This document shows positions 6,457 through 63,216 of a DNA stretch of 64,000 nt, piece by piece. A program made the translations under genes and the position numbers. The notes beneath the pieces were generated by a model that ran no database searches, was not told where the DNA came from, and worked only from the letters and a program-made list of their open reading frames with translations. Position 1 is the stretch's first letter. The number at the start of each line of letters is the position of its first letter. The stretch is from contig OZ024740.1 of assembly GCA_964016885.1 (NCBI GenBank), forward strand, positions 252,960,001-253,024,000, read 5' to 3'. Source of the DNA: Eledone cirrhosa. Lineage: Eukaryota.

Positions 6457-6497
<41 letters not shown>

Positions 6498-7039: not shown

Positions 7040-7112
<73 letters not shown>

Positions 7113-15144: not shown

Positions 15145-15206
<62 letters not shown>

Positions 15207-17401: not shown

Positions 17402-17662
17402 ATCAAAAGATGGTTAAATGAGTTCCATGTATTTTATTATGCGCATTTCAAAAACAAATATCATCATGCAATAACATTTGTGTTTTCATCAGATAAAATA
17501 GGAGGACATGATATGAAGGTTAAAAAACACTTGTGGATAGTGCAGTTTTAAATCAACATATTTTGATCTTATATATTATGTATACTCCAGTCCTACAAAC
17601 TGTAGAGTGCTTCTTATCCGATATCTGCATTGCTTTATTGTACTACAATAAAACTCACCTCC

Positions 17663-24978: not shown

Positions 24979-25014
<36 letters not shown>

Positions 25015-25068
25015 GTGTACCAAACACACACACATTTCTTACTCTCTCTGTCCCTCCCTCTTTCTCTC

Positions 25069-25732
<664 letters not shown>

Positions 25733-25915
25733 ATAGATAGATATATATATAGGTAAATATACACGGGTGTGTATGATTGTGTATAGAAGATTATATTAAT
25801 AAGAGGAATTCCAACTTTGTCTGATTTACTCGTTTTATTTACAATCCTTTAAAATATATATAATATGGTATTATAATGAAATAGTATGATAGAATATTAA
25901 ATTCTAAGTGTTAAT

Positions 25916-25954
25916 TGAACAAGTACTTTCATGCTTTCGCAATCTTCAGATTCA
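25916..25954 (-). ncRNA. Minimal hammerhead ribozyme motif (family D, antisense copy)
   Basis: Mirror of 26057-26095 with one C>T change that gives a U-G pair in stem I. Confidence 0.7.
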
Positions 25955-26056
25955 TGATATGTGGTGACAGTCGAGTTTGCAATTTTCAACTGTGAAAATT
26001 TCACAGTTGAAAATTTCACAGTTGAAAATTGCAAACTCGACTGTCACCACATATCA

Positions 26057-26095
26057 TGAACCTGAAGATTGCGAAAGCATGAAAGTACTTGTTCA
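26057..26095 (+). ncRNA. Minimal hammerhead ribozyme motif (family D)
   Basis: tgaac-CTGAAGA-ttgc(gaaa)gcat-GAAA-gtac-TT-gttca: palindromic stem III, GNRA-capped stem II. Confidence 0.75.
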
Positions 26096-26211
26096 ATTAA
26101 CACTTAGAATTTAATATTCTATCATACTATTTCATTATAATACCATATTATATATATTTTAAAGGATTGTAAATAAAACGAGTAAATCAGACAAAGTTGG
26201 AATTCCTCTTA

Positions 26212-26334
<123 letters not shown>

Positions 26335-27541
26335 ATCATTGTTATTTGGCGTTGTTGAAAGGAGCAGTGGCCTTTGACCTGGCAATAAAAAACTGTAGAC
26401 AAAATTATTTCTGTACCCAAACCAAGGCGCGCACACACACACGTTTGTGTGTGTGTTTGTGTGTGTGTGTGTGCGTGCGGGTTTATGTGTGTTTGTGTGT
26501 GTCTGTGTATCTATATATAAGGGATACAAATACTACTTTCTCACTGTCTCCAAACTTCTCAATTCATTCGTTGCTAAGTATTTTATTTTGCTACGAGGTA
26601 TTTTATTTTGCATGGTACTATTTTTCCCCTGAGTTTGTGATTTCAGAGAAAGGTAAGAAATACTTCATATTTTACATGTTTTGTATTTTGACTTTACAGT
26701 TTGAATTGTAGAATTGTTTATCCAATCAAAATATTACAACAGCTAACAGTGAAATATAGAATTTAAAAAAAAAAGCTTTTTCGACTGAAATCAAGTATTT
26801 GAGAACATTCACGTCTATTTTTCAAAAATATATAATTTGAAATAGTTTGCTTTTGTTTTGGACTGAAACTTTTTTTTAATTTAATTCGTACGAATATTTT
26901 TTAAAGATCTTTTAAAAGATTTTAACATAACTTGATTTGGCCCTGTGGTAATGAATGAATCCTAGTTGGATTGTTTATCAATATAAACGTGAGGGAAAGT
27001 CCCTCGTCTATTTACAATTTTTGTAAGTGAGAGGATACGTACTCCATAGAATTATAACAAGTGAGTGGGTGTGTGCGTAGACAAGACAATAACCACAACG
27101 AGAGTTATATTCGACAATGTAAATAATGGTGATGTTTATTTTGTCTATCATGTGTTTATTATATTACAAATGAACCAACATACCAATATAGACGTGATCC
27201 AGTTGTAGTGAAGGCAACGTATTACTATTACAAAGGCCGTGTGCTGTTTGCTGTCTCCGTGACTTGTCTGTTGTTTCGTGGTACAGAGGCCGTCTGCTGT
27301 TTGCTGTCTGCTGTTCCCGTGGCTGTCTGCTGCTTACTTAAAAGGTGTTCTCAACCAGAGGGAGACAACTAGGCCTGGTCCATTATCCGACAGTGGGCGT
27401 AAGGCGTCTTACTACAGTATCCCCTGCCAGATTTTCAAATCATCGAAAATCGATGTTATTACTCACACGTGGAGTAAGATGGCGAACAATGCAAGAGGGG
27501 GGAGCTATTCGCTCTACCAATCGTTAAATCCAGAATAAGGA

Positions 27542-30500
27542 TTAGAAAAATGTTAAAAAACAACATGCATGCATAAAAAAAGGCAAAGAAAAAGCAGAAA
27601 CAGAGAAGCAAAAAAAAAGGTGCAGCTTACACAGTCTAAATATAGACGGTACTGCAAATTTTTTGGGCCAGTGGACCCTACGACCTGAACGGGTCGTGGT
27701 CTTGTAACGTGGCGATGGTGGTGGTGTAGGGACAGGCGATGATGGTGGTTCAGGAACAGGCGTTCGCTCAACAGGCAAATACGAAGGGGTTCGTGGATCA
27801 GGAACCACAGCATCCGTGTCCAGGTGTGCCTGCTTTAGCCTGTCTATTGTAACTGTCTCCCTGGACCCTTTAATATCTAAAGTGAAATGCTTAGCCGAGC
27901 GCGCTAAGACACGGTAAGGTCCAGTGTAAGGCTGTGTGAGTGGGGGCTTCACAGAATCTTTCCTTACAAAGACATGCGTCCACGAGGCAACATCCCTCGG
28001 GACAGCAGTCTTGACAGTTTGTTTCCTAGTGTCCATTGGCGGCAAATCCTGGAAATAGGAGCGCAAACGGGACACGTAGGAAGCGTGATCTTGGGCATCA
28101 AGATCGATAGGGGCAAGCATTTGCCCGGGCAACGTCAGAGGGGCACCGTACAGTACTTCGGCCGGTGAAAATCCAAAGTCGACCTTCACCGTTGACCGAA
28201 TCCCTAATAGCACAATAGGGAGGTACTCGCTCCAACGCACCCAGTCCATTGAGGCCATTAAGGAGGCCTTCAGTTGTCGGTGAAAACGCTCCACCATACC
28301 ATTCGAAGCGGGATGGTACGCCGTAGTTTTGATGCGTTTAGCACCAATTAATTTTGACAGTTCGAGGAAAAGGCTCGACTCGAACTGCCGTCCACGGTCG
28401 GTAGTTACTGTGGATGGAACTCCATAACGAGAGATCCATCCAGACACAAAAGCACGCGCTGTTGTCTCAGCGGTGATGTTTTTCAAGGGGATGGCTTCAG
28501 GCAATCTCGAAAAACGGTCAATTATAGTCAGCAGATAAGAATAACCATCGCTGATAGGCCAAGGTCCCACTATATCAATGTGAATGTGCGAAAAACGCGC
28601 ATCTGGGTTAGTAAAGGTACCCAGGGGGGCCTTGACGTGTCAATGGACCTTTGATTTCTGGCAAGCGACGCAGGAACGGCACCAAGCAGCAATTTCACGT
28701 CTCATATTTGGCCAGAAAAATCTAGCTGATATAAGTTTAACTGTGGCAGAAGATCCTGGATGCGAGAAACTATGTAATGCCAGAAACACGGTCCGACGAT
28801 GATTCTCTGGAACGAAGGGCCTAGGCACGTCTAAAGAGACGTCGCAGAGAATTTGGCCAACTGCAGTCGACAGAGGCAAGTATTTCATCTCGCAATTCGC
28901 AAACTCAGGCGATGTAACATCCAATGACTCAAGGGGAAGCTGATCCGCAGCCAAACGAGTCAGATCTATGTCAGAGGGTGATGAGATCGCTGTCACGGGT
29001 AAGCGGGACAAAGCATCGGCCGCTGTATTCAGTGAACCCGGAATGTGTTGGATATCATTCGTATATTGCGAGATGAAATCAAGGTGCCTCGTCTCTCTGG
29101 GCGAGTATTTATCAGCCTTCGCTCTCAACGCAAAAGTCAATGGTTTATGGTCAGTGAGGATAGTAAATAGTCTACCCTCTAGCATATGTGAAAAATGTTT
29201 CACGGCTAAATAGATGGCTAAAAGCTCCCTTCCAAAGGTGCTGTAGCGCGTCTCAGCAGGTTTCATTTTTCTGGAAAAAAACTCCAGCGGTTGCTGGTAA
29301 CCATTGATGTTTTGCTGTAGCACTGCGCCCACAGCGATATCCGATGCATCAACACAAAGCGTTAGCTTTGCACCGGGTACCGGGTGAGCCAGTAAAGAAG
29401 CATTAGCCAAAGCAGTTTTGGCGTGCTGAAAATCAGCAAGTTGAGTCTCGGTTAAAGAAATGTCTGTATTCTTCTTCCGACAATTTTTTTTAATTTCTGT
29501 CAGGGAGAAAAGCAATCTTGTACAATTTGGCACGAAACGCCTATAAAAGTTGATCAGGCCTAAGAATTGGCGTAACTGACGTAGTGAGGTCGGTGGAAGC
29601 AAATCCTCTATGACCTTAACTCGCTCAGGCCGGGGTCGAATACCGTCAGCATCGATGACGTGACCCAAGAAAGTCAGTGACTCAGCACCAAAAACACATT
29701 TGGGTGCATTAATCTGCACGTTATACGCCTTCAATCGGCGGAAAAGAAGATTCAAATGGTGCGTATGTTGTTCTTGAGAAGAACTAGCAATGAGCAGGTC
29801 GTCAATATACGTATAGACGAAATCGAGGCCACGAGTAACCTCATCCATAAACCGCTGAAACGGCATGGTCAAAAACTCAAATGACCCAAATGGCGTAACT
29901 ATAGCCGTTTTTGGAATGTCATTTTTATGGATAGGAATTTGATGGTACGCACGAATTAAATCCAGTTTGGAGAATATCTTGCATCCCTGCAACGAAGACG
30001 CAAAGTCTTGCAGATGAGGGATAGGATAACGGTCTGGTTCCGTTATTGAATTTAAGCGTCGATAATCTCCAGTAGGTCTCCAATCGCCAGTCGCTTTCGG
30101 TACCATGTGTAATGGGGACGCCCACGGGCTCGTGAACGGACGAATAATCCCCAACTGCAGCATATGATCAAACTCTGATCGTGCTGCTTTGAGTTTGTCC
30201 GGAGGCAAGCGACGAGGACGAGAAAAAACGGGAGCACCAGTTGTAGTTATGAAGTGCTCCGTGGTATGAGTTGGCTCATCAACTCGAAAATTTCCCTGAG
30301 TCAGTTGCGGGAACGAGTTCAACAACGCATGGTAAGTATCGCCGGTGTTAGCAAGAAAAAAGGTCGGGCTAACCGTTGGAACTCCTGCTGCCTTGCCAAC
30401 AACAGTTAAACCAGTGATGTTATCAATTAGGCGTTTACGACGGAGGTCCACCGTCAATGAAAAATGGTGGAGAAAATCCGCGCCTAGAATCGGATACGGC

Positions 30501-30802
30501 AAGGCAGCGACAGTAAATATCCATTTAAACTCACGCCGCAGATTACGGAACTGCAAAGGTAGCGAGATTTGTCCGAAGGTTCGAATCGGCGAACAATTTG
30601 CTGCCTGCAACTCAATAGGTGACTCAGGGGGAGTCTCCTTCATACAACACACAGGCCATATTGAACAAACTGCACCTGTGTCAACCAGAAAGGCTCTACC
30701 TGATAGCAGGTCCTCAATGAAAAGGTGGCGGTTGGATGATGTTTCGCAGAGCGCACTATCCGCCGTTAGTGACTCTGGTCGTCGTTTCCCTTGTAAGCAC
30801 AA
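27542..30802 (-). pseudogene. pol: Gypsy-1 pol (PR-RT-RNase H-IN), frameshift near 28640
   Basis: [43 protein letters not shown]. Confidence 0.93.
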
Positions 30803-31543
30803 GGAGGCCTACAACGAGCGGCTTTGTCACCATATTTGTCATGGTAATAACAATATGTTGGATTTGATGTTTTGGAAAGGCTACGGTGGCGAGGAGTTGA
30901 ATAATATCGTGACGGCTCCTCTGCCGTCCAAAAGACCTGAGTTCCTGGCACAACTCCGCCATTTGACGAGTCATGGCTTCCATTGTTTTGACTGACTTCT
31001 CATCACTCGCTGATGAGCGTGATTGAGGAAGAGAAGAGGAAGCAACGTACTTTTGCTTCGAAGTGTCTCTCTTCGTCACCTCTACTATTTTGTCGGCAGA
31101 GACAGCAATGTGGTCGAGTGTGTTTTCTTCTAGCATATGGGCTAGGATCGCCTGTACCTCTTGAGGTAGGCGAGAGAAGAACAATTGCTTCAGGAAAGGG
31201 CTATCCTGATCCTGGGAATCACTCAATTCCCGCAAATGCCGGAGAAAAGCGGTAGGGGTTCTGTCACCTAGTCGTTCGTCCTCGATCAATGACCGAAAAC
31301 GACTCTCTACCGATTTACAGTTCCTTTTCAAGATCTCGCCTTTTAACGAATTATACGTTAAGTCAGAGGGGGGGGGTCTGTAATTAGGTCTTGGACCGAA
31401 TCTGTTAAATTAGGGGGAAATCCGCTAATCAAGACAGCGAGGCGCTGGTCAGACTCGTTCTTACAGACCGTAAAATACGCCTGTATCTGGGCGAACCACA
31501 GCTTAGGGTTTCCGTGAAAGGCGGGCAAATGTGGCGTATTCAT
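30756..31543 (-). pseudogene. gag: Gypsy-1 gag (frameshifted)
   Basis: [41 protein letters not shown]. Confidence 0.85.
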
Positions 31544-32660
31544 TGTGAAACGACTTTAAAAAAAATAGAAACAGCAATTAATGTTCCCTCGTACAGGGAA
31601 AAGTACACATCCAAAATGGAAAAAAAAATCAAAGGTCAAAAAGAAACAGACATTCAAAACATTAGGAAATAGCAAAAATACATAAAGTACATATATATAT
31701 ATATTTTTTTTTTAAATGTTTTTTCTTCAACGTCTGTCCCCTTGTGTTGCTTCAACGGGCAAGCCAAATTATATAACCCGAGAAAAAGAGAAAAAAAAAA
31801 TTTTTGTTTTAGAATATATCCACGTTGGATATCAACAATAGGTAGCCTGTGGCTAAAAATCCCTTAGAAAAAAAGTAAGGCATGTGTATCCCCTGCGAGG
31901 CAGTAATGTTCACAAAAACAGTTTTTCTCTTGATCAAATATGGAACACACACACGTAATTCAAAATGTCCCTGTCCTGGCGGAAAATTGCAAAACGGAGA
32001 AGGAAAACATTTTTGGCTGGTTTGTATACCTTGTCAATACTATATAAACACTTTATTATTTCTCTGTCTTTTTTTTTTTTGTATTTTTGTAAGTTGCGAA
32101 AAGGTTGGCAACGTGGTAATAACAGTGAAATATTTAAGTTCAAATGAATAAAAAGGCTGCGTAAAATTCTTTAGTCGGGGTTACCAGTGTGGTGATGAAT
32201 GAATCCTAGTTGGATTGTTTATCAATATAGACGTGAGGGAAAGTCCCTCGTCTATTTACAATTTTTGTAAGTGAGCGGATAGGTACTCCATAGAATTATA
32301 ACAAGTGAGTGGGTGTGTGCGTAGACAAGACAATAACCACAACGAGAGTTATATTCAACAATGTAAATAATGGTGATGTTTATTTTGTCTATCATGTGTT
32401 TATTATATTACAAATGAACCAACATACCAATATAGACGTGATCTAGTTGTAGTGAAGGCAACGTATTACAATTACAAAGGCCGTGTGCTGTTTGCTGTCT
32501 CCGTGGCTTGTCTGTTGTTTCGTGGTACAGAGGCCGTCTGCTGTTTGCTGTCTGCTGTTCCCGTGGCTGTCTGCTGCTTACTTAAAAGGTGTTCTCAACC
32601 AGAGGGAGACAACTAGGCCTGGTCCATTATCCGACAGGGGGCGTAAGGCGTCTTACTACA

Positions 32661-33243
32661 GCCCATTACGTGCACTGCGGCATTCATATTTCTCAACTTA
32701 TTATAACTAAGTCTGTACAACAAGCTTCACTTAGCAAAAATGTTCTAGGTTACGTGAATGAATTGCGGAAACTATATAGTACATCAGGGAAATTTAAGCA
32801 AGCGTATTTATCACAACATGATGAAGAAAATGAAGTATCGTCACCACGCTCCTTAACACCTGTGTGCCCTACTCGATGGCTAACATGACTTTCTGCAGTC
32901 AAAGCCCTTCTTGACAATTATTCAGATGTCCCTATTTCTTTATAAGAGGCAACAAATGAGTTTGGCACCAATATTGCATCCAGACCTAATGTTATTCTTA
33001 CGTGTCACTCTCCGGGCCAATGTGTTCTTGGATTGCACGTTGTAGTTTCATTACTTCAATTCCTTGAAGGATTGAACAAATCTTTTCAAAGTACCACCTT
33101 CAATCTAGGTAGCATGTTGCATAGTGTCAAACTGGTGCAGGAGGAGCTAAAAAAATCATCTACGCAGTGAATAAAAATTTCAGGAGCTGTTCAATACAAC
33201 AGAAAAAATGATTTATCAACTCGTTATTTCTCCTTTGGAGCTT
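32661..33243 (+). pseudogene. hAT transposase fragment (ZMYM1-like type)
   Basis: YVHCGIHISQLI...VCPTRWLT*..LNKSFQS. Confidence 0.75.
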
Positions 33244-34940
33244 TGGCAGCATAGTGTATAAATGTTATTGAGACACGAGTAACATAATAATTGTTTCTAC
33301 TTTAGGCACAAGGCCAGCAACTACCCAGTGCCTCACTGGTACTTTATTTTATCGACCCCGTAAGGATGAAAGGCAAAGTCAACCTCGGCGGGATTTGAAC
33401 TCAGATCGTAAAGGGACGTAACTATGCTAGAAAGCATGGCGTCTGACCCTCTACCGATACTACCAATCCAATAATGATGTCAACAGCAGAAATTAGAGAT
33501 GAAATGTATGTTTATTTTTGTTGTAGCACAAATAATGTTTGTTAACTTGTAAGGTTGACGTTACACATAAAATGAGGTTACAAAAGGGAATGTGCCATTG
33601 TGCCAGGCCCAAGGAAGGCCGGCAGGTCAAAGTGCAAAATCTCACCGTCACACGTTGTACGTGTTGCTGGTTCGAAGTTCAGGGTGCGAGAGAGAGATTC
33701 TTCAAATCTTCGCGGGGAATTTCTCCCCCAGGGTGCGTAGGGATACATCCTCTTCTACTGGCGCTGATTGGCTGAGCTGAGCCAAATTACGCACAGAGAA
33801 TGTATGTGAGCCCGCGGAATGTAGGTCACTACAATACTTCCCCCCTAGACGTAAGACGATACAGATTATTGAATCAGCAGGAAAAAATGCTGAAAGAGCA
33901 CATCAGTGAAAAAATAATTGAGTAGAAGGATGCATGCAAGCAAAAAAAATGAGGCGCTAAGTGCCGTGTTGAGCCGCTGTGTCAAATGACTAGCTGTTTT
34001 GTAGTTTATACGTGACCACCAAAGGTCTAACAGAAAACGGATAAAGTCTGACATGGGCGAAGTTGCTGTTCTTGCATTAAATGTTAATGGTAAGTGTTGT
34101 ACCAGTAGCTGTGGATGAAGCTATTATGGTAGTTTACCAGTGCTGGCAAGAAGATGATGGGTAGGCGAGAAAATGTCGGCCTCCCAGATGTATTGCCGAA
34201 AGTGCTAGGCAGCCAGGAAAAAATGGCTGGTTGCTTTGAAAAGAAAAAAGCAAGTTGAATCTGTAGGTGGGTAGTAGTTGCAGTGTAAATTCCATAATTC
34301 CGGCGAATCCACAGAAGTGGTGGAAATGCTGACAAGTCCAGTTCTATTTGTTGTTTTCCCAGTGAGTCGGGTAAGGTAACAAGATGGAGGTTGTTATGGA
34401 CGATGAGTGTGCAACGAGATGGGAAACTGTTTGAGTTCAGCTGCAATTAGCATTCTCGTGTTGCGGTGCCTGTTTGAATCCAGGTGAATTAAGATCTATG
34501 AGTCGCTAGCATGTGACGGAACCTCAACCAGGTGAAAAGGGATCTCGCAGAATACTACGTTTGAAGAACATATACTAAGAACAACAACATGTTGATCAGC
34601 GCCAGTAGAAGAGGATGTATCCCTACGCGCCCTGAGGGAGAAATTCCCCGCGAAGATTTGAAGAATCTCTCTCTCGCACCCTGAACTTCGAACCAGCAAC
34701 ACGTACAACATGTGACAGTGAGATTTTGCACTTTGGCCTGCCGGCCTTCCTTGGGCCTGGCACAATGGCACATTCCCTTTTGTAACCTCATTTTATGTGT
34801 AACTTCAACCATACAAGTTAACAAACATTATTTGTGCTACAACAAAAATAAACATACATTTCATCTCTAATTTCTGCTGTTGACATCATTATTATGTTAC
34901 TCGTGTCTCAATAACATTTATATACTATGCTGCTAAAACA
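33244..34940 (-). mobile_element. Internally deleted Gypsy-type element with an inverted partial LTR
   Basis: Minus-strand PPT gggggaagtat then tgtagtgacc LTR (33833 to 33244). Gag-like FPP..DSPELW near 34290-34330. Second LTR copy at 34595-34940 is in the opposite orientation. Confidence 0.65.
33289..33470 (-). mobile_element. S1 SINE inserted in an LTR
   Basis: Absent from the homologous arm at about 34885. Flanked by aataat. Confidence 0.9.
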
Positions 34941-38040: not shown

Positions 38041-41000
38041 GACCAAGCATAGATGAGTTGAGAGAGAAATTGGGTATAAGAGGAATAAGTTGTGATGTGC
38101 AGGAGAGAAGACTGAGATGGTATGGACATGTGATGCGCATGGAGGATGACCGCTGGGTAAAGAAGTGCCAAGAAATCCCAGTAGAAGGAAGATGCAGTAG
38201 AGGAAGACCATGTAGTGACCCCTAGCGGTGAAATCCAGAAGTAATGAGAGTTACGTCCCCATAGGGACTATATATTGAGACAGCGAGAGACCTCTTTCTC
38301 TCTCTTACACGGCCAGCCGTCCGCGAATCAAGATGCAACTCTGCCTTCTCCGACTTTTAGTTCACCTACTCCAGTGAACATGTTAAGAGCAACTCTCTCA
38401 CTACTATGGTCGCAGACTACTAACAGCCTCATGAACCAACTACACAAGTAACATTAACAACCTTCGTAACTCATTGGTAATATGTTTATTGTTCTATTTT
38501 GACTTCAATGAAGTAAACCTTTGTATATAAACCAAAAAGCCAGTCTTGTACTTTCAACAACAACTGTGATAATAATATCTGTACTAATACCATTCTGTAC
38601 TAATACCATTCTTCTAAAGTGGTAACCCAGCTGTGGGAACTAATTGTTCCTTTTAAAAGAAAAATTTGAAAAAAAAAATACGAAGTGGTATTATAAAAAA
38701 AAATTAATAGAAAACAACACACTTTTTTATTCTGATATGGCTTCATTTACCGATCACATAAGGAAGAGAAAACTGAACTTTTTGTTAAGAACAATTATGT
38801 AAATATTTTTAAATGGATTTTTACGGACGCTGACTTGCCATACCCAATCTTAGGAGCGGATTTCCTCCACAATTTCTCCTTGACTGTGGATGTCCGAGGC
38901 CAACGTCTGGTGGATGACATCACTGGTTTCTCAATTCGTGGCCGAAAAGCCAATGCTCCAACGATCAGCCCAATATTCTTCATCGCTGCCGCTGGAGACG
39001 CCTACCATTCGTTGTTAGGAGCTCACCGATGGAAATTTTCGAGTTACTGAGCCAACTCACTCAACCAAACATTTTATTTCCACAACCGGTGCTCCAGTAT
39101 TTTCACGTCCACGTCGTTTACCGGCGGACAAGTTAAAGGCAGCACGGTCGGAGTTCGACTATATGCTGCAGCTGGGCATTATTCGTCCATCTACGAGTCC
39201 TTGGGCTTCACCATTACATATTGTGCCCAAGACTTCTGGCGACTGGAGACCCACTGGGGATTATAGGAGGTGAAACGCGATGACCGTCCCGGATAAATAT
39301 CCGATTTCCGACCTCCAGGATTTCGCATCCTCGTTGCAAGGTTGTAAGATTTTCTCCAAACTTGATTTAGTGCGAGCTTACCAACAAATTCCGGTCAGGA
39401 AGGAAAAATTTCTGGAAACAGCTATTACGACTTCTTACGACTCCTTTTAACTATGCCTTTTGGACTCAGGAATGCCGCTAGCACTTTTCAGCGGTTCATA
39501 GACGAGGTCACTCGTGGTCTGGACTTCGTTTATGCATATATAGATGATCTTCTCGTCGTTAGTTCCTCTCCAGAAGAGCATATGCGTCACCTGAACCTTT
39601 TATTTCGCCAACTCTAGGATTACCGCGTTCGAGTGATTCCCGCAAAGTGTGTTTTCGGATCCGCTTCACTGAATTTTTTAGGTCACATCATCGACGCCGA
39701 GGGTATTCGACCCCTTTGGCAGCGAGTTAAGGCTATACAGGATTTACCTCCGCCTACTACACTTTACCAGTTGCGTCACTTCCTAGGCCTAATCAATTTG
39801 TATAGACGTTTCGTTCCTCAATGTGCAAAATTACTGTTTTCCCTTACCAAGATTTTGAAAAATCGTCGTAAGAATGAGGATATTTCCTTGACACAAGAAC
39901 AACTCGAAGATTTCCAGACTGCCAAGACAGCACTTGCTAATTCATCTTTGCTAGCCCACCCAGTACCAGAGGCCAAGCTTTCGCTTTGTGTCGATGCATC
40001 TGATACCGCTGTGGGAGCAGTTTTACAACAGTATAACGCTGAAAACCAATAACCTTTGGTATTTTTCTCCAGGAAGCTGAAACCAGCAGAAACTCGTTAC
40101 AGCACGTTTGGTCGGGAGTTATTAGCCATATATTTGTCGGTGAAACATTTTTCTCATATTCTTGAGGGGGAGAAATTTTACGGTTTTCACTGACCACAAA
40201 CCTCTGAACTTCGCTTTGAGGGCTACAAATATTCGCCCAGAGAGACAAGGCACCTCGATTACATTTCGCAGCTTACCAATGATATACAGCTGCAGAAGCC
40301 TTGTCACGATTGCCAATCAGCTCGATTTCGTCATCCCAGGAGCTAGATTTAAGTCGTTTGGCAGCAGACCAACCTGCACTCGCATTGTTGGATACTTCAT
40401 CAGCCGAATTTGCGACTTGCAACCTGAAATATCTGCCCCCGTCGACTACCGACAGGCAGATTCTCTGCGATGTATCTACGGATTCACCACGACCTTATAT
40501 TCCCGAGACTCGCCGTCGAATTGTGTTCCTTGCTTTGCACAGCATTTCTCACCCAGGATCTTCAGCCACAGTAAAGCTCATAACGGCTAGATTTTTCTGG
40601 CCAAATATGAGGCGAGAAATTACTGCCTGGTGCCGTTCCTGCATACAGTGTCAAAAATCTAAAGTCCGCAGACACATCCGGACTCCACTTGGTACTTTCA
40701 GTACTCCGATGCTCGTTTTCAACACATCGACATCGATATCGTTGGACCTTGGCCATTCACTAGTGGATATCCTTACCTTTTGACCTGCATTGATCGTTTT
40801 TCGCGATAGCCTGAAGTCATCCCCTTAAAGGACATTACCACCGAGATGATAGTGCGTGCCCTGGTGTCAGGGTGGATTGCTTGCTATGGCGTGCCAACCA
40901 CAATTACCACAGACCGTGGTAGGCAATTTGAATCTCATCTTTTCTCAGAGCTGACAAAAATTATTGGCGTTCAACGCATTCGGACCACATCTTATCATCC

Positions 41001-42441
41001 TGCTACAAACGGAATGGTGGAACGTTTTCACCGCCAATTAAAGGCCGCTCTTCGCGCCTATCCAGACTCTCTACGTTGGAGCGAGTACCTTCCTATTGTG
41101 TTATTAGGAATTCGGTCATCAATAAAGGAGGACCTTGCGTTCTCCCCGGCCGAATTATTGTATGGTGCTCCTCTAGTGTTGCCTGGGCAAATGCTTGCCC
41201 CTGTTGATCTTGCTTTTCAAGATCCTCTTTCCTACGTATCTCGTTTGCGCTCCTATTTTCAGGACTTACCGCCTATGGATACTAGGAAACAAACTATTAA
41301 AACTGCAGTCCCGAGGGATATTGCCTCGTGGACACATGTCTTTGTCAGAAACGACGCGGTTAGAACACCTCTCACACAACCGTACTCTGGACCCTACCGT
41401 GTGTTAGTACGTACTGACAAACATTTCACAGTAGACATTAAGGTATCCAGAGAGACAATGGTGGATAGACTAAAAATAGCATACACTGACGCTCATACAC
41501 CTGAGCCACAAATACCCCAAACTTTCTCTATTGTGCATACACCTGCTCCTTCTGCCTCACCTTCACCTACATACAAGACCACGACCTGTTCCAGTCGAAG
41601 AGTCCACTGGCCCAAAAAACTCTGTCAGACATATTTTATATGAACTGGCCACTATGGAGCCTTTTCTTTTTTCTTTTTCTTTGTATTATGTATACATGTA
41701 CCTTTTTATTTTTTGTTGTTTCATACCTTTGCTTGGATCCCATTCTTGCGGGTTCGCTACAATTACCTTCGGGCTTTTCGCCTATCGTCTGGGGGAGGGT
41801 ATTGTAGTGACCCCTAGCGGTGAAATCCAGAAGTAATGAGAGTTACGTCCTTTGGGGACTGTAGTGACCCTTAGCGTCGAGAACTCAGACGTAATGAGAG
41901 TTACGTCCCCATAGGGACTATATATTGAGACAGCGAGAGACCTCTTTCTCTCTCTTACACGGCCAGCCGTCCGCGAATCAAGATGCAACTCTGCCTTCTC
42001 CGACTTTTAGTTCACCTACTCCAGTGAACATGTTAAGAGCAACTCTCTCACTACTATGGTCGCAGACTACTAACAGCCTCATGAACCAACTACACAAGTA
42101 ACATTAACAACCTTCGTAACTCATTGATAATATGTTTATTGTTCTATTTTGACTTCAATGAAGTAAACCTTTGTATATAAACCAAAAAGCCATTCTTTTT
42201 CTTTCAACAACAACTGTGATAATAATATCTGTACTAATACCATTCTTCTAAAACCACGAAAAGCATGGACGGAGGTGGTGAGAGCAGACCTCAGATTGCT
42301 GTGGTGTGCAGGAGAGAAGACTGAGATGGTATGGACATGTCATGCGCATGGAGGAAGACCGCTGAGTAAAGAAGTGCCAAGAAATCCCAGTAGAAGGAAG
42401 ACGCAGTAGAAGGAAGACGGACATAAAATGATGATGATGAT
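38041..42441 (+). mobile_element. RTE 3' fragment split by Gypsy-2 (38041-38210 plus 42253-42441)
   Basis: Removing Gypsy-2 restores agaggaagacca|cgaaaagcatgg (RGRPRKAW). Confidence 0.85.
38211..42252 (+). mobile_element. Ty3/Gypsy element lacking gag (Gypsy-2)
   Basis: LTRs 38211-38618 and 41803-42252. TSD acca. PBS tggtaaccc at 38620. PPT gggggaggg at 41791. Disrupted pol about 38800-41643, homologous to Gypsy-1. Confidence 0.95.
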
Positions 42442-42480
42442 GTGTGTGTGTGTGTTTGTATATATATATATATATATATA

Positions 42481-43975
42481 TTTCGTTTCTGAATTTGTTT
42501 AGCAAGATTCTTTATCTGAAATCGTGTGTTGAAACCGATATTGTTATACTTTGGGAGGGTCATGTTGCCAATAAGAAACACACGCACCAGTTGATTTCGC
42601 TTCAATTTATTATATATTTATAAATTTATAAATTTACAAATCTACAAACTTATAAATTTCTGGTTGGTTGGTTGGTTCCACAACCAGATAGTTGTTTTTT
42701 ATATATAGTCATAGTCCTTTCGTCACACACTCTGTGACCTCTTCAGTGACTGGGGATTCCTTTCTTTGTTTCTGTGCCTTTCCTTTCTTCTGTCCTACGC
42801 CATTTTGTTTCTGTGTGTGTGTTGTGTGCTCAGTTTGCGCATGCGCCACATCCGGGTGTCTGTGTGTGTTTGTGTTCATTTATCTATTTGTTTATTTATT
42901 TATTTATTTACATGTTGTTGGTTGGTTGTTTGTTCTATGTGTGTGTGTGTTTTCATTTTGTCCTTAATTGTAAGTTGTGATGTTGCTGTTCCACTCATAT
43001 TTTCTATTTAATTTTGGTTGTAATTCTTTTATGCTTACTGCCTCTGTAATTTGCCTAAACATTGCATCTTTTCTGTGTGTGGATTCTATTTTTATTTCTA
43101 TGTTCTCTAATTTACCCTTGTGTTCTATCTTAGCATGTTGGTAGAGCACAGATAGAACACAAGGGTAAATTAGAGAACATAGAAATAAAAATAGAATCCA
43201 CACACAGAAATGATACAATGTTTAGGCAAATTACAGAGGCAGTAAGCATAAAAGAATTTTGGTTGTAATTCATTTATGCTTACTGCCTCTGTAATTTGCC
43301 TAATCATTGCATCTTTTCTGTGTGTGGATTCCATTTTTATTTCTATGTTCTCTAATTTACCCTTGTGTTCTATCTTAGCATGTTGGTAGAGCACAGATAG
43401 AACACAAGGGTAAATTAGAGAACATAGAAATAAAAATAGAATCCACACACAGAAAAGATGCAATGTTTAGGCAAATTACAGAGGCAGTAAGCATAAAAGA
43501 ATTACAACCAAAATTAAATAGAAAATATGAGTGGAACAGTAACATCACAACTTACAATTAAGGACAAAATGAAAACACACACACACATAGAACAAACAAC
43601 CAACCAACAACATGTAAATAAATAAATAAATAAATAAACAAATAGATAAATGAACACAAACACACACAGACACCCGGATGTGGTGCATGCGCAAACTGAG
43701 CACACAACACACACACACAGAAACAAAATGGCGTAGGACAAGAAAGGAAAGGCACAGAAACAAAGAAAGGAATCCCCAGTCACTGAAGAGGTCACAGAGT
43801 GTGTGACGAAAGGACTATGACTATATATAAAAAACAACTATCTGGTTGTGGAACCAACCAACCAACCAGAAGTTTATAAGTTTGCAGATTTGTAAATTTA
43901 TAAATATATAATAAATTGAAGTGAAAGCAACTGGTGCGTGTGTTTCTTATTGGCAACATGACCCTCCCAAAGTAT

Positions 43976-43982
<7 letters not shown>
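42481..43982. mobile_element. Foldback cassette, family A (long form), with GIY-YIG C-terminus in both arms
   Basis: Tail 42481-42538, then a palindrome to 43982. Hammerheads at 42707-42751 (-) and 43778-43822 (+). Peptide HAKIEHKG..DAMFRQITEAVSIKELQPKLNRKYEW. 245-bp duplication of the tip. Confidence 0.9.
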
Positions 43983-44042
<60 letters not shown>

Positions 44043-44045
<3 letters not shown>

Positions 44046-45121
44046 ATAATAATAAAATTGAAGACTAAAATCCAAAGAGGGCTCGATAAGGAAAATATAT
44101 ATCAAATATATAAGAACCGTAGAGCAAATATTTATTAAAATAACAGATTAAAGTTTAAGCAAAGAATCGCTGCTTTCACCCTTAATGGGATCTTCTGAAA
44201 CTAACAAAGTCAATCTGTAAACGCAGAACTGGATATTTCAAAAAACGTTGCAACCGGAGGAAGACAGGAAGACGATATTTTGGTTCGTGGTAACGTTCGC
44301 TGGCAAAGAACGGATAAAAACGTATAATACGTTATTAATAGGAGCGGTGAAAAACAATTACGCGCAAAGACAGAACCACGTTTATGGTATAAAAGAGGTC
44401 GTAGACTAATGTTCTCTTAGGTGGTGTATAGAGACGTTCTCTGGCAATGAACGAAAAAACGAAGATAATAAGTCATATGTGGAGCATGGAGAACAAAGCA
44501 CGCAAAGACAAAACCACGTAAATGGTATAGCAGAAGTCATAGACTAAAATTCTAACTAGGAGACCAAATGAATCTCCGCTACAGAGTTAAGAACAAAGTA
44601 AATAAATACAATACAGAAGTAATAGAAACAAATAAATACATACACACAAACAGATACGTACATACACAAGCATACGCAAAACCTTACCATAGGTATACAA
44701 AACCACGCACATATAAATATGTGTGTGTATGCTTGTGTACAAATAAATAAATAATTATATAAACGTATATAAGTAAATAAATACGTATATAACAAGCGCA
44801 CACACATACCTACAAATAAATAGACGAATGTTCGGAGACGTAAGTCAACTAAAACAAGAAGTACACATATACACACACCCACCATACGTACGAACCTGCA
44901 TACTCACGCAGACGCAAAACTCCCACGTATTATTCGTTTTTTCCCGTTCTTTGCCAGCGAACGTTTCCACGAACCAAAATATCGTCTTCCTGTCTTCCTC
45001 CGGTTGCAACGTTTTTTGAAATATCCAGTTCTGCGTTTACAGATTGACTTTGTTAGTTTCAGAAGATCCCGTTAAGGGTGAAAGCAGCGATTCTTTGCTT
45101 AAACTTTAATCTGTTATTTTA

Positions 45122-45129
<8 letters not shown>
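44043..45129. mobile_element. Foldback cassette, family B
   Basis: Arms 44128-44331 and 44926-45129. Tail 44043-44127. (TA)n flanks. Motif CAGAAGA-tccc(gttaa)gggt-GAAA. Confidence 0.75.
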
Positions 45130-45347: not shown

Positions 45348-45733
45348 AATGAAGCAAGCATGCTCTGTTGGATGTGCAATGTCAATGTGCGTGAACGACC
45401 AAGCATAGACGAGTTGAGAAAGAACCTGGGTATAAGAGGAATAAGTTCTGGTGTGCAGGAGAGAAGACTGAGATGGTATGGACATGTGATGCGCATGGAG
45501 GATGACCGCTCGGTAAAGAAGTGCCAAGAAATCCCATTAGAAGGAAGACGCAGTATAGGTAGACCACGAAAAACATGGGTGGGGGTGGTGGGAGCAGACC
45601 TCAGATCGCTGAAACTCATGGAGAAGATGACAAAGGACCGTGACAAGTGGAAAGATGCTGTGCTGAATAGGACCCGTCCCACCCTTGCAAGCAGGGAAAA
45701 GCGGACGTAAAATGATGATAATGATGATGATGA
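45348..45733 (+). mobile_element. RTE 3' end
   Basis: RRLRWYGHVMRM..GRPRKTW..DRDKWK and (atg)n tail. Confidence 0.9.
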
Positions 45734-51189: not shown

Positions 51190-53100
51190 CTAGCTGAATG
51201 ACCCGGCGTTGCCCGGGTTACTGCTGTTTTTATTTAGATTAGGAAACAATAAATATGAAGAATTTCTTTTTCTCATATTCACTTTACATAAAATATGTCA
51301 AAGTTGTAATGATAATAGAATTGTGACCAACCGAGCACGGCGGGCTGTTTGATGTTCTGCGGCACGGGAGGCGGCGGTGGATACAGCGTTCTGGGACCTT
51401 CGGATGGCTGTCTGTATCTCGGTCTGGGATGCTCTTGCAGCTGCGGTGGAGGCGGAGTCCTTGGACCTTCGGATGGCTGTCTGTATCTCGGTCTGGGATG
51501 CTCTGGCAGCTGCCTTGGACCTTCGGATGGCTGTCTACTGGTCGGTTTCTGCGGCACGGGAGGCGGCGGTTGAAGCAGCGTTCTTTGACCGTCCGGTGGT
51601 TATTTGCTGATAGTTTCCGAGGCCCTTGCAGCAGCAGTAGTTGCATCATTCCTAGCCCTACGAAGAGCTCTTTGGCTGTCACTCTCTGCTGCCCTAGAGG
51701 CGGCTGTTGCAACTGCATTCCGACAATTACGAATGGCACGATTCGAAGCGTAACCGTAGGTAGAGGGGCGCTGGGTTGGGCTGTGCTAGGGGTACTTAAG
51801 TTGAAAGCAAAGTAACAGGGGTTTGTGGCCAAAAATGCAGTCCGGCATCCGTAGACTGCTCATTCAATCGCCTCTTTTTTGAAACAACAGACGATGTTTT
51901 CCTACGGCTAAGGGTACTCTTTCTTTCCAGTGGCATGGTTGCAATAGTACAGTAAGTAAACAGTAAAGGGGAAGCAGGTTTAGAGCAAAGGCAAAAAAGC
52001 GAAGGTGATAAGCAGTATTTTGGGGAAGGTAAAAAAAAGTGACAAATTGTTACAATTTTAAGCAAGAAAAAAGTAAACAAAAAACGTACTGGGAATGGCA
52101 AAGTCCGAAAGCGAGGTCACAAAATGTAATGCAGTGAGAGTGAAGCACACGTCTACACAGTAGCCTAACCAAGTAGCAAGTGTAGCGTTTGAAAACCAAA
52201 GCTTTGCAGGCCATTCAAATCAACGATAAGAGTCTGCAGAATTTTTTGATAGCAGTCTTGCCAAAACAGAATAAAAGCTGCCACCTCCAGCCGTCCAGGA
52301 AATTTTTTTGTTGATTTAAGGCGAAAATTTGTCCACTTCTCGACCGAAAGAGAGCAAAAACTGACTCAACTGGTGCCAGGTGGTCAGAACTGGCAGGAAC
52401 TGGTTTGTGTCACGTGAAGCTGTAACTATAGCAACAGTGGTTCCCTCGGTCTCAAAGACCAAAGTAAGTGGAGAGGGGAAGGTAATGTTACTGTAGCACC
52501 AACAACGTCTCTCTCTATATTCCTCGCTCAATAAAGAAGGGGGAGGGAGAAGGTAATGTTACTATAGCAACAGTGGTTCGCTCACTGACCAAAGTGGAGA
52601 GGGGAATGTAATATTTCTGTGACACCCAAAACTTCTCTCTCTATCTTCCTCTCTCTCTCTCTAAAGAAGGGGGAAGGGGAAGGTAATGTTACTATAAGAC
52701 CTGTTATTCCTGTCTCTCTATATACGAAGTGGAGATTCGACCTCGAGCTTCACTCTCGACCGAATTTCGAAATGATTCGAGCACGTCAACAAAATTTAGA
52801 CTCTTTTCTACCCATATTAGCAAAAAACCGGGTCAAAAAACTCAAAAGGAAACATTTTTCACGCGTGCATAAAATGCAACCTCATCTCCCGATTTCACCC
52901 AAAATAGACAAAAAGGGGGATTGCGGGCCCCTGGGGGGACCTATCAAAAAACAAAGTAGCCTAAGCAATGTAAAGGGTCATGAGGAGTGATGTATGCAAA
53001 TTTGAGCGAGATCGGGCGAGCGGTGGAGACGCCAACCTCGAATAATGTAGCATCCACATACACACAGACAAACACACATCCTCTGTTTTATATATATAGA
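51190..53100 (-). mobile_element. Helitron deletion derivative retaining the RepHel N-terminus
   Basis: 5' TC at 53100. 3' cccgggcaacgccggg..CTAG. MPLERKSTLSRRK plus 23-aa repeats at 51330-51940. Confidence 0.85.
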
Positions 53101-53209
53101 TACACACACAGAAATATATATATATACACACAGAAATATATATACATTTCTGTGTGTGTAATATATATATATATACACACAGAAATATATATACATTTCT
53201 GTGTGTGTA

Positions 53210-53240
<31 letters not shown>

Positions 53241-53256
53241 GAAATATATATATATT

Positions 53257-53289
<33 letters not shown>

Positions 53290-54232
53290 TACACACACAG
53301 AAATGTATATATATTTCTGTGTGTATATATATATATATATTACACACACAGAAATGTATATATATATACACACAGAAATATATATACATCCCTTAGCTAC
53401 TGTACTGTATCTGTTGCTATCTATCTCTCTCCAGCTATCCCTCTCTTTTAGTCTGTCTGTTTCTCTCACTCTCACTCTTTCTCTTTGTAACACACTAACA
53501 TTCCTCTCCTCTATCGCTGTGACGAATGGGGAGATGGAGGAGGAGGAGGAGAGAGTCACTTCGTCACTTCACCTCTGCCTTTCTTTCTCTCCCCTCTCAC
53601 TCCCTTATTACGTACAGACATTAGGGCGATGGATTGGCAGAATCTGTAGAGAGTTGGACACCATGCTTCATAACATGGAGTTACGTCCCTTTACGGTCTG
53701 AGTTCAAATACCGCCGAGGTTAACTTTGCCTTTCATCCTCACGGGGTCGATAAAATAAAGTACCAGTAATGTACTGGATATTTGCTGGCCTTGTGCCAAA
53801 AGTAGAAACAATTATTAGAAACATTGCTTCATTTTTACATATCTAAGCATTAGTAAAATAACTAATAATTTCAAAAGTAATTTTTCAATTCCAATTGTTA
53901 TGAACAGCAAAACATTAATAATAATTTTGTTCTAAGAAATATATATACATTTCTGTGTGTGTAATATATATATATATACACACAGAAATATATATACATG
54001 TCTGTGTGTGTAATATATATATATATACACACACAGAAATATATATATATACACACAGAAATATATATACATTTCTGTGTGTGTAATATATATATATATA
54101 TATATATACACACAGAAATATATATATATATACACACAGAAATATATATACATTTCTGTGTGTGTAATATATATATATATACATTTCTGTGTGTGTAATA
54201 TATATATATATATATACACACACAGAAATATA
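53101..54232. repeat. Two arrays of a self-complementary minisatellite (53101-53390, 53935-54232) with an S1 SINE (about 53625-53817) between them
   Basis: Unit cacacagaaat-(at)n-atttctgtgtg. Confidence 0.85.
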
Positions 54233-54242
54233 TGGGCATTTC

Positions 54243-54288
<46 letters not shown>

Positions 54289-54777: not shown

Positions 54778-55683
54778 TCTATATATCTAAAACAGAGAAT
54801 GTCTGTCTGACTCCCTAAAACTCGAGAACCACCCAACCAATTTTTTTCAAACTTTACACATGTAATACTTATGGTCCTGTGAGTGTTGTTTTGAGCAAAA
54901 AATATTTCAAATTTCCAATGCCCTAGGGACTGCATTAGGCGCCGGTTAGCGATCTCTCTCTATCTTTCTTAGTCTATCTTTTTAGATAGATACATAGCTA
55001 TAACGTCACGCCCTTTTAATATCTGTCTGTATGTCTGTATGTCTGCATCACGACATTATGACACTATCTGTGTATGTATATATATGTATATATAGTGTGT
55101 GTGTATATATATATAGTGTTTAACGTTTTTCGAAATATTTACTTCTGTGTTCACAGATTGATTGTTTTAGTTTCAGAAGATCCCGTTAAAGTTGAAAGCA
55201 GTGATTCTTCGCTTAAACTTTAATCTGTTATTTTAATATATATATATATAATTATATATTCGTGTACAGATATTTTTGCATTCACAATAACAAAATATAA
55301 ACAAACGTATTTATTTCATGAGGCTCATAAATATATATCAAATATATAAGAACCCTAGAGCAAATATTGTTCTCATTGCTGACGAGGCAGAAGGGGATAT
55401 ACACGATTGGCTGAAGAAGGATGAGACTGTGTTAGTAGTATGACCAACAGCTGCTATCACACCAACAGCAGCAAAAACAACAACAAAAAAGAGAGGGGAC
55501 GCAATTACATGCTTTTGAAAAATCTTAATGGAAAATTATTTGCCTATTCACCCAAGACGGCTTCACTTTTTATTAGGACTTCTGCATCAATTGGTGAACA
55601 TATGACGAAACTGTTTCAGAAAGGAGGGATAAACATGCCAATCTATGTTTCGAATCCCGAGCAATGCTGGGCCATTCTGCTAG
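54778..55683 (+). mobile_element. Non-autonomous Helitron-type element
   Basis: Same termini as 9675-10968 and 13607-14383. Confidence 0.85.
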
Positions 55684-58949: not shown

Positions 58950-59133
58950 TTGATTAGCAGTATCGGTAGAGGGTCGGACGCCATGCTTTCCAGCATAGTT
59001 ACGTCCCTTTACGATCTGAGTTCAAATCCCGCCGAGGTTGACTTTGCCTTTCATCCTTACGGGGTCGATAAAATAAAGTACCAGTAATGCACTGGGTAAT
59101 TGCTGGCCTTGTGCCTAAAGTAGAAACAATTAT
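58950..59133 (+). mobile_element. S1 SINE
   Basis: Nearly identical to 4384-4577. Confidence 0.9.
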
Positions 59134-59920: not shown

Positions 59921-59982
59921 CATACATCACCCACCCTAAACCTTTTGTGATCCTTTTTATTAATTATTTCATTACTAAGATA

Positions 59983-60167
59983 ATTGTTTCTACTTTTGGC
60001 ACAAGGCCAGCAATTTTCCAGTGCATTACTGGTACTTTATTTTATCGACCCTGTAAGAATGAAAGGCAAAGTTAACCTCGGCAGGATTTGAACTCAGAAT
60101 ATAAAGAGACGTAACTCTATGCTGCGAAGCAAGGTGTCCGACGCTCCACCGATTCTGCCAATCCACC
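59983..60167 (-). mobile_element. S1 SINE
   Basis: Reverse complement of the S1 sequence. Confidence 0.85.
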
Positions 60168-60347: not shown

Positions 60348-61333
60348 AGGGCGGTTGATTGGCAGAATCGTTATATTTAGTTCCAATTGTCTACATTCTG
60401 GTCTCAAATCCTGCAGGAGTCAACTTTGCCTTTCTTCCTTCTGAGGTTGAGAAAATAAAATACCAGTAATAATGCTTGGGCTAAGTGACTTTCACTTTTT
60501 TTAAAGAAAAATTGTTGACACTGTGCCAAATTTAGAAACTAAGGGCGGTGGAATGGCAGAATCGTTAGAGCGTCGAACAAAATGTTTTGTAGCTTTTAAT
60601 TACGTCCCTTTACGTTGTGAGTTCAAATCCCGCCGGAGTTAAATTTACCTTTCATCCTTCTGGGATTGATAAAATAAAGTACTAATGAAGTACTGGGGTC
60701 GATATAATCGATTTCCCCTTTTCTACTAAAGATAGTTGTTCTTGTACCATTAGAAACCATTATTGTTGGCAGCATCAGTAGAGCGTCAGACACCATGCTT
60801 TACAGCATAGAGTTATGGCCCTTTACGTTCTGAGTTCAAATCCCACCGAGGTTAAGTTTGCCTTTCATCCTTACGGGGTCGATAAAATAAAGTACCAGTA
60901 ATGCTCTGGAATAATTGCTGGCCTTGTGCCAAAAGTAGAAACAATTATTGTTGGTGGATTGGCAGAATCGGTAGAGAGTCGGACGCCATGCTTTGACGCA
61001 TAGAGTTACACCCCTTGCCATTCTGAGTTCAAATCGCGCCAAGGTTAACTGTGCCTTTCATCCTTACGGGGTCGATAAAATAAAGTACCATTAATGTACT
61101 GATAATTGCTGGCCTTGTGCCAAAAGTAGAAACAATTATTGTTAGGTGGATTGGCAGTATCGGTAGAGGGTCGGACGCCATGCTTTGACGCATAGAGTTA
61201 CACCCCTTGCCATTCTGAGTTCAAATCCCGTCGAGGATAACTTTGCCTTTCATCCTTACGGGGTCGATAAAATAAAGTACCAGTAATACACTGAAATAAT
61301 TGCTAGCCTTGTGCCCAAAGTAGAAACAATTAT
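60348..61333 (+). mobile_element. Head-to-tail array of five S1-type SINEs
   Basis: Units start at about 60348, 60542, 60765, 60950 and 61143. Confidence 0.9.
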
Positions 61334-62019
61334 TGTTAGCCAGACAAACTCAAGACGTTATTATGTCTTTTGTGATTTATATATTTGTTTTCTTTTCTTC
61401 TAAAACTGAAGAGAGATTCTCAGAATATGACAATACACGGTGATAGCGAACCGACCAATGTATGTATGTACCCGTAACTCCTGAAGGGGCGCCGTTTCTA
61501 TGGAATTTTTAAACGTGACGGAGCCCATCCCTCCAGGTCTGACTACAGATAGAGAGTGAGAGAAAGGAAGTGAGAAAGAGATATAGAGGAAGAATTGACT
61601 TTACTGATCCTCTTTTTGTCGATCTCAAATGGATATACGGCAAAGTTGACCAACCAATAAGTGAGCAGAAAAGATATAAAGGGGAATAACTTTGATGGGT
61701 TTACTTGCCATTCCATATTTCCATATCTCACGCCTCTGTTTTAAAAGCATTTAAACGAGTAAGATTTCAGTTACTGGTTGAAGCTATTCCACATAAGATG
61801 TTAAATCCAACAATTGTAAAGAATGAACGTCACAACATTTTATTTTTCTCAAAATAAGAATTTAAAATAATCACTATACATTTTGCCTGTTTTCTACTAC
61901 TACTACATCACCATTTTCTTCTTCCACATATTCCTGGGCGTGTGAACAGTCCTCAAACACTCCTTTCAACGGGTCCTGTCAGAAGCCTCAAGCGAGATCA
62001 GCCAATGTCATGGATGTTA

Positions 62020-62360: not shown

Positions 62361-63216
62361 TCTGATAACTGAATGCTGAAGCTGGAGTTTTTTCTGGAAA
62401 TAAGAATTAAAATCGTCGCTATACATTTTGCCTGTTTACATCATAATACATGCATATGTGTGTGTATATATGTGGGTGTTTTGTTGTGTGATGGTAATAA
62501 CAAGTTAATTATTTACCAGTAACACCGGTTTGAGTAAACTCTCGTTGCTATGACATCTGAGAGCAATTAACCAATGAAACTATTCATTTTTGAATCTACC
62601 GGATACTTTGAATTAAACACAGCATTATGATCCATCGCTGACGATATTTTAATTGTTTCAAACGTTACATACTTTGTTATTTCATCGGTAAGCTACTTGA
62701 ATTTGTTAATTACATGAATATTCAGTTTTCTGAGCTGTTAACGTTACATTTGTCATTTGTCCGTATTTTGGTGGTGTATTTTTATATACATATAAAATTC
62801 AATCACTAACAATGCCTGGCTTGTGTGGGCATGTTTCCAGTTCTCTGTATTCGTTGTGGTAGAGAATCTAAAACGGCAAGGTTTAGATTCCCTGCTAAGG
62901 AAGGAATATTGGGGGGGGGGGGGGGGTAATTCAAACTGGGATATAAAAGTGCACATGGTGTATATATCAAATGATATACCAATATACCCAACTATAGTAT
63001 ACATGGAATACCAATATATACAACTATATATATAACAAATAAAGTGGGGTAAGGAACCAGGTGGACCATAACGCACCAGAGTACTCGATACTTAGGATAA
63101 TAGAGTGACAGATCTAACGCTAGTTATGTCTGGAGGTCGAAAGTGAAACTGTTAAGCGGTGAATTAAGCATAAAAGCTTAACTTTTGAAAATTACTTTCA
63201 CTTCTAACAGAAAATT

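Follow-up and report, generated by a model that had tools for sequence, protein, structure and literature searches.

A head-to-head Penelope-like retrotransposon insertion with a doubled tip in an Eledone cirrhosa assembly

The stretch of Eledone cirrhosa DNA analysed here (64 kb of contig OZ024740.1, assembly GCA_964016885.1; hereafter the window) is repeat-rich, animal-like DNA with long (AT)n tracts, an LTR element, LINE fragments and a SINE-like repeat, and holds no N bases. Within it, positions 42539-43982 form a head-to-head palindrome of ~1.5 kb between two (AT)n tracts. In self-BLAST, the region 42538-43983 pairs with itself in reverse complement at 2232 bits (E 0). Aligning the outer arms (42539-43009 with 43516-43982) shows 6 substitutions over 461 bases, and 4 indels. 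The left arm (42539-43130, minus strand) carries the C-terminus of an endonuclease (EN), a 3′ UTR and a pLTR, and ends in a 19-nt fold-back loop (43131-43149, minus strand) closed by TCT/AGA and in frame with the EN. The right arm (43395-43982, plus strand) is a copy of the same 3′ end, with its EN stop codon at 43559-43561 and an ATG at 43958. A 58-nt tail (42481-42538, minus strand) adjoins the left arm only and matches 6985-7042, part of a shorter copy, at 58 of 58 positions; in long and short copies alike, the opposite arm passes straight into (AT)n. The palindrome and the tail common to 6491-7042 had both been noticed by an earlier sequence-only reading, and both were recovered. The left (AT)n flank (42459-42480) follows the GAT/GT microsatellite end of a neighbouring repeat, and the insertion sits in the microsatellite run just past a LINE-like 3′ fragment (42300-42418). 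Any target-site duplication is unreadable in the right tract (43983-44042). In the long palindrome, the 3′ end of a Penelope-like element (PLE) is present as two truncated copies placed head to head, and the insertion encodes no working enzyme.

The coding remnant is an open frame on the minus strand (42964-43152; codons 43152-42967, stop at 42966-42964) with the last 62 codons of a GIY-YIG endonuclease. It holds RQITEAVSI and PKLNRKYEW, the motifs quoted by the sequence-only reading for its GIY-YIG-like C-terminus. The peptide retains the two His belonging to the CCHH motif as well as the catalytic Glu and Asn, and alignment places the missing GIY and YIG motifs upstream of the truncation point. 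Direct searches with the fragment gave little: Pfam returned no family at E≤10 for the 62-residue peptide from either arm, and none of 12 candidates from a word-indexed homology search was significant. Atlas returned unnamed eukaryotic clusters at 0.95-0.96 and a GIY-YIG match at 0.89, a lead only. An exhaustive search of 1.84 billion proteins then found 51 with E≤0.001, the best at 1.2e-7. A YIG-type motif lies upstream of the match in 17 of these 51, the rest being mostly short fragments, and Pfam GIY-YIG (PF01541) was found at E≤0.003 in 10 of the 24 that were scanned, which were picked mainly for length (five above the curated cut-off).

A second search, from match P0003, yielded 47 proteins of 533-1757 aa. 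Thirty-five align to the window peptide, 32 of them within their last ~120 residues, and 33 of the 35 carry the YxDD motif of reverse transcriptases (RTs). In hhalign, the peptide fell on positions 995-1051 of a 1086-position profile built from 16 of the relatives, with a probability of 98.2% and E 2.9e-14; the score of a separate HMM is circular, because its members had been chosen by the peptide. Since RT proteins align to the fragment at their C-terminal ends and the profile agrees, the fragment reads as the last part of a C-terminal PLE endonuclease. These relatives support a parent element that was a PLE with a C-terminal GIY-YIG domain. The sequence-only reading had tied a non-coding cassette to a GIY-YIG parent through this palindrome, and the tie holds by way of the relatives. 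It had also made that link hinge on a GIY-YIG or PLE profile match, which direct Pfam did not give but the relatives did. Within the window, tblastn found neither an RT nor an upstream EN piece of the long-copy family. The 64 kb likewise hold no full-length copy. Among 47 and 29 long relatives, nearly all unnamed, the closest candidate parent was 42-43% identical over the peptide.

Sixteen full-length relatives share invariant Cys of a CX2-5CxxC linker, the CCHH His, Glu and Asn, and their RT motifs read DKS, SMDVxxLYP, GGAIG and YVDD. Pfam RVT_1 matched 3 of the 16, with one above the cut-off and that one apparently chimeric, and a PDB profile search with the relatives gave weak RT matches only and no telomerase. 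An RT followed by this linker and a CCHH GIY-YIG domain is the arrangement of Neptune and Nematis (PMC8557442), and linker plus CCHH is their signature; the window fragment itself holds only its two His. The parent is therefore likely of the Neptune/Nematis type, an assignment made by motif rather than by tree and through the relatives. The short linker-to-GIY spacing resembles, by eye, the Nematis rows of Fig. S2 in the same paper. As the clades are defined there, linker and CCHH together exclude Hydra, Naiad and Poseidon. Hydra-clade PLEs resemble the long copy in their C-terminal EN, hammerhead and (TA)n targets, but have no CCHH and carry CxxC and CxH around Glu and Asn, whereas the peptide has two His and no such Cys motifs (PMC8557442). 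Naiad and Chlamys have an N-terminal EN and no canonical hammerhead; here the EN stop is followed by a 3′ UTR and a hammerhead. Penelope and Poseidon have no Cys linker before GIY, which is present here as judged from the relatives. Elsewhere in the window, a 169-aa frame (12073-12582) without a Pfam match resembles, again by eye, the Hydra-clade endonuclease rows of Fig. S2 (PMC8557442).

Each arm carries a predicted type I hammerhead motif: 42707-42751 on the minus strand, with a stem I of 5 bp, a stem II of 6 bp and a stem III of 2 bp with a 2-nt loop, and 43778-43822 on the plus strand. The motif lies ~220 nt past the EN stop, and because the two lie on opposite strands, one transcript would hold only one of them. 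Nine matches came from the descriptor search of the window, against zero in every one of 12 order-1 Markov controls; five of the nine fall in the long-copy family, in all three of its copies, and three in two other fold-backs. Rfam returned no match on the 64 kb at gathering thresholds, hammerhead included, and the minimum free energy fold of the monomer contained no hammerhead and was no better than shuffles (z -0.77). Type I motifs with a short helix III are expected to act as dimers (PMC4209133), so neither result is surprising. An Rfam run by E-value gave 47 sub-threshold matches, mostly to miRNA models, which we rejected as structure-only fits to hairpins. The predicted motif resembles the hammerheads of metazoan PLEs and non-LTR retrozymes in being of type I with a short helix I (Cervera and de la Pena 2014, PMC4209133; bioRxiv 10.64898/2026.07.22.740005). 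Further likenesses are the larger helix II with an unpaired 5′ base and the helix III of 1-2 bp (PMC4209133). Unlike those, the helix III loop here is not palindromic, and unlike non-LTR retrozymes the locus is a head-to-head arrangement with a coding remnant rather than a head-to-tail tandem array.

At the other end of the left arm, an ATG 25 nt inside the arm (42563, minus strand) opens a frame of 27 codons that spans the whole tail. It may be the N-terminus of the parent ORF, and 27 open codons could also be chance; by eye, they show no evident likeness to the N-termini of 13 long relatives.

Two further copies of the family occur in the window. The short copy (6491-7042) has the same palindromic plan, again between (AT)n tracts, with a 14-nt loop (6726-6739), the tail at 6985-7042, and hammerheads from the descriptor search at 6791-6835 (plus) and 6674-6630 (minus). 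A third, older copy (8377-8652) has a tail-less right arm (8412-8652), a hammerhead at 8468-8510, a 17-nt loop (8395-8411) and a left arm reduced to ~17 bp of stem; the lost arm was not found, as 7900-8380 matches nothing else in the window. Over the shared core, substitution divergence is 1.7-2.5% between long and short copies and 7-9% for the third copy, which supports placing the short and long forms in one family.

The window also contains other fold-back sequences. The palindrome at 25797-26214 belongs to another family, with 98% identical arms, (AT)n flanks, a 1-nt loop, a 15-nt direct repeat beside the tip, hammerheads at 26057-26095 (plus) and 25954-25916 (minus), and a one-sided extension of ~45 nt on the left. 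A loop-less palindrome at 19615-19842 has a hammerhead-like motif (19733-19799) and a probable tail on the right, and a non-palindromic relative with a similar motif lies between (AT)n tracts near 17430-17500. These two hammerhead-bearing palindromes appear to share the plan of the long copy; for both, what was used from the fold-back tabulation is the tip call alone. Directly to the right of the long copy, at 44132-45125, a 590-bp spacer separates two inverted arms of 201 bp (97.5%). This element, to which pieces at 10564-10680, 13934-14049 and 55122-55235 are related, is possibly another PLE or a MITE. An inverted-repeat element at 14717-15148 (137-bp arms, 160-bp spacer) and an 84% palindrome with an interrupted centre at 20124-20359 gave no hammerhead match.

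Other repeats fill much of the remainder. An LTR retrotransposon at 26944-32661, which we take from its motifs to be of the Ty3/Gypsy kind, has direct repeats of 474 bp (98%) and frames resembling pol at 27542-30808; a second copy, related at 71% (38808-41457), is framed by repeats at 38211-38608 and 41860-42256. Further LINE-like 3′ fragments, like that at 42300-42418 presumably RTE-like, lie at 38041-38210, 45397-45566, 1285-1678 and 25013-25732. A SINE-like repeat of ~190 bp recurs with 85-98% identity at 4384-4577, 33284-33470, 53625-53817, 58952-59133, 59980-60167 and 60766-61337, with a tandem cluster at 60400-61340. Minisatellite arrays occupy 8806-9677 and 53089-54271, the second partly self-inverted. 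A 238-aa open frame at 63208-63924 appears to resemble an ISXO2/Merlin-type DDE transposase.

The three copies of the family fold back in similar ways, with arms that join at their 5′ ends. Their loops are 19, 14 and 17 nt in the long, short and third copies. The fold of the long form lies upstream of that of the short form by 334 nt when measured between stems and by 340 nt between the 5′-most bases, rather than by the ~370 nt first estimated. Tabulating folds and tip microhomologies, as the earlier reading recommended, gave the three loop lengths and the AATT described below, with the fold distance corrected. Only on the left arm of the long copy does the reading frame carry on across the loop. 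The loop of the short copy agrees with the parent solely on the right, tail-bearing arm, and that of the third copy on the left arm. The loop therefore lies with the tail in both complete copies and opposite the tail-less arm in the third, and among the three copies the tail-less arm never owns the loop. Truncation points close together, with extra bases on one arm, are what self-priming predicts, whereas two independent cDNAs need not end near each other. The fold-back is thus supported as a snap-back-type junction, with a polarity rule drawn from two to three copies. The same two to three copies suggest that the copy-back arm terminates, or is cut, at the tail-less end. Although 7% diverged, the short and third copies have fold points only a few bases apart, so their shared site may be the pLTR boundary. 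The view of short and long forms as different truncations of one PLE accordingly stands as to family, while the end point of the short form may be a favoured boundary and not a chance truncation.

Much of this anatomy is already in print. Inverted 5′-truncated copies, one-sided tails, (TA)n targets and a pLTR hammerhead are features of canonical EN+ PLEs such as Neptune and Nematis (Craig et al. 2021, PMC8557442). The tail is 58 nt here and 30-40 nt in those elements. The tip duplication sets the locus apart from the EN+ PLEs described in that paper, as does the ~40% identity of its closest full-length relatives over the peptide. In the Penelope elements of Adineta vaga, pLTRs are head-to-head and inverted, and their palindromic junctions were read as self-priming (Arkhipova et al. 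2013, PMC3846280). The arms are head-to-head in both cases, with an optional tail in A. vaga and a one-sided tail here. In both, the tail lengthens an ORF start in the pLTR (from 12 to 22 aa in A. vaga, from ~8 to 27 codons here), and unlike in the A. vaga comparison, a target-site duplication is not readable here (PMC3846280). Self-priming on antisense RNA, as proposed for A. vaga, and snap-back of first-strand cDNA lead to the same geometry and are inseparable at this locus (PMC3846280).

Poseidon PAc of Anolis carolinensis offers a second comparison (Frangieh et al. 2024, PMC11167929). It shares an AT-rich target, two fixed 3′ ends that define the tail, and a hammerhead near the ORF start; it belongs to the Poseidon clade and is without the linker that is present in the relatives of the long-copy peptide. 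Purified PAc starts reverse transcription in vitro at two sites bounding the tail. Both ends are thus RT start sites in PAc, whereas here the tail accompanies the loop-bearing arm (PMC11167929).

The tip of the long palindrome is present twice. A 245-nt unit (43010-43254, plus strand) is followed by a second, direct copy (43255-43499) that is 240/245 identical without gaps. The four segments alternate in orientation: S1 (43010-43130), S2 (43150-43258), S3 (43255-43375) and S4 (43395-43515). A second loop (43376-43394, minus strand) has the sequence and orientation of the first and mismatches its reverse complement at 15 of 19 positions. At the junction lies a self-complementary 4-nt microhomology, AATT (43255-43258). 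The breakpoints, 121 and 109 nt from the loop, are almost symmetric about the tip. Microhomology of at least 4 nt occurs at ~1% of tip-spanning breakpoint pairs, and an asymmetry of at most 12 nt in 5% of such junctions (52 of 1017), or in 14% (6 of 44) if lengths are limited to 200-300, which makes the symmetry suggestive only.

A DNA strand turning back through the tip would invert the loop, so a DNA fold-back or inverted triplication is ruled out as the source of the second tip, and the shared orientation points to one fold-back plus one direct duplication. The doubled tip, as seen in the assembly, is best read in this way. The repeat of 43010-43254 at 43255-43499 and its four alternating segments were thus described correctly at the outset. 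The mechanism offered with them fares unevenly: a snap-back fold agrees with the data, while repeated template switching is less supported, as two loops in the same orientation are accounted for by a single event. The sequence-only reading was right about the nature of the element and probably over-read the tip.

The variants give some indication of timing. The tip duplicates differ at 5 of 245 positions and the arms at 6 of 461 (Fisher p=0.53), an age ratio of 1.6 with a 95% interval of 0.38-6.2. Duplicates as diverged as the arms imply an old duplication, close to the insertion, which also keeps an RT-level origin alive. S4 equals S1 at 121 of 121 positions and has none of the three variants of S3. 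No variant is common to S1 and S3 or to S2 and S4, as a late duplication might have left (chance of none 0.22). An attempt to order the tip events by variants met a star-like, uninformative pattern.

We favour, at a probability of about 0.6, a 5′-truncated head-to-head PLE insertion in (AT)n whose tip was duplicated once by a hairpin-guided slip at the 4-nt microhomology. The GIY-YIG enzyme of the element would nick the (AT)n target, and cDNA synthesis by the RT would begin at the tail's distal end. Some 670 nt on, the 3′ end of this putative first strand, now the left arm, would fold back on a 3-nt inverted repeat across the 19-nt loop and prime a copy of itself, giving the second arm, presumably the right arm of today. 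That arm would stop at the pLTR/tail boundary and be joined to the target, and such a stop would leave a tail on one side only. At or soon after insertion, a strand that had just copied the tip could form a looped-out hairpin of ~109 bp and pair again at the AATT upstream; the looped-out tip strand folds at -120 kcal/mol. Alternatively, a staggered break across the extruded cruciform might be filled and joined at AATT. Either step would copy 245 nt twice. Slippage between short direct repeats at a hairpin base has reportedly been described for deletions, and its extension to duplication is ours. Long palindromes are fragile (PMC7999016).

The RT of the element might instead have made the doubled tip during integration, which we consider unlikely. 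After snap-back, 109 nt would be copied before a jump via AATT onto displaced RNA 12 nt ahead; reverse transcription would run to the same RNA end, snap back a second time at the same spot and return to the first cDNA. Such a course would suit a duplicate that is not younger than the palindrome and a junction, AATT, that is self-complementary, and a fixed RNA 5′ end would regenerate an identical loop in the same orientation. Moreover, PLEs commonly give complex insertions, both tandem and inverted (PMC8557442). Its cost is three more switches, one of which must repeat the first junction to the base, against one event for direct duplication. The match of S4 to S1 without the S3 variants also weighs against it, and is neutral only if those variants arose later. 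The 15-nt repeat beside the tip at 25797-26214 could be a parallel case, but may be native to that other family.

That the palindrome is real and the 245-nt repeat an artefact of assembly or library seems to us no more probable than an RT origin. Unmerged contig or haplotype ends could overlap across the hairpin tip, or a polymerase could slip during amplification. PLE inverted structures are known to trouble assemblies (PMC8557442). All five differences are private to the two inner segments beside the junction, S2 and S3 (post hoc p ~0.02-0.03), as low-quality contig ends would give and for which direct duplication offers no account; this placing is the strongest point in favour of an artefact where contigs were joined. 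All five are nevertheless substitutions, with no indels, a pattern unlike the errors of noisy long reads, and the window contains no N. Blind concatenation would give a microhomology of at least 4 nt only ~1% of the time, although a slip in vitro would show one too.

It is very improbable that the peptide match is incidental and the element a MITE, a fold-back DNA transposon bounded by long terminal inverted repeats, or an inverted triplication born of replication. Long near-perfect inverted repeats in TA-rich targets and the lack of a direct Pfam match would fit. Against this, the arms differ in length according to where the fold lies but share a fixed outer end, the tail is found on one side only, an RT-endonuclease C-terminus and a hammerhead lie within the arms, and a triplication would invert the second loop, which is not inverted.

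As read from its sequence, the anatomy of the long copy is the published PLE plan, and the doubled tip is the feature for which no report was found. That search covered open-access articles and not subscription papers such as the PLE reviews of 2005-2006; supplements of PMC3846280 and PMC11167929 may show such junctions. With at least three hammerhead-bearing fold-back families within 64 kb, such anatomy is routine here, and it is no surprise to find a local duplication inside a palindrome. For the doubled tip to matter, it must be confirmed in reads and must recur. The locus helps annotation in that the long copy links an otherwise non-coding palindromic repeat, readily mistaken for a MITE, to an RT plus GIY-YIG lineage, one with no named close relative among the protein matches.

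The polarity of loop with tail can be scored cheaply across a genome, as a test of the way in which PLEs produce tails and inverted copies. A more far-reaching possibility, which we hold doubtful, is that the locus is a frozen record of PLE integration, in which first-strand cDNA always starts at the distal tail site, snap-back primes the second arm, loop and tail stay together, and the RT re-enters its RNA and repeats the fold-back to the base, thereby producing doubled tips. If this were true, loop polarity and tip doublings scored across the genome would decide between cDNA snap-back, self-priming on antisense RNA and twin priming by a dimeric RT.
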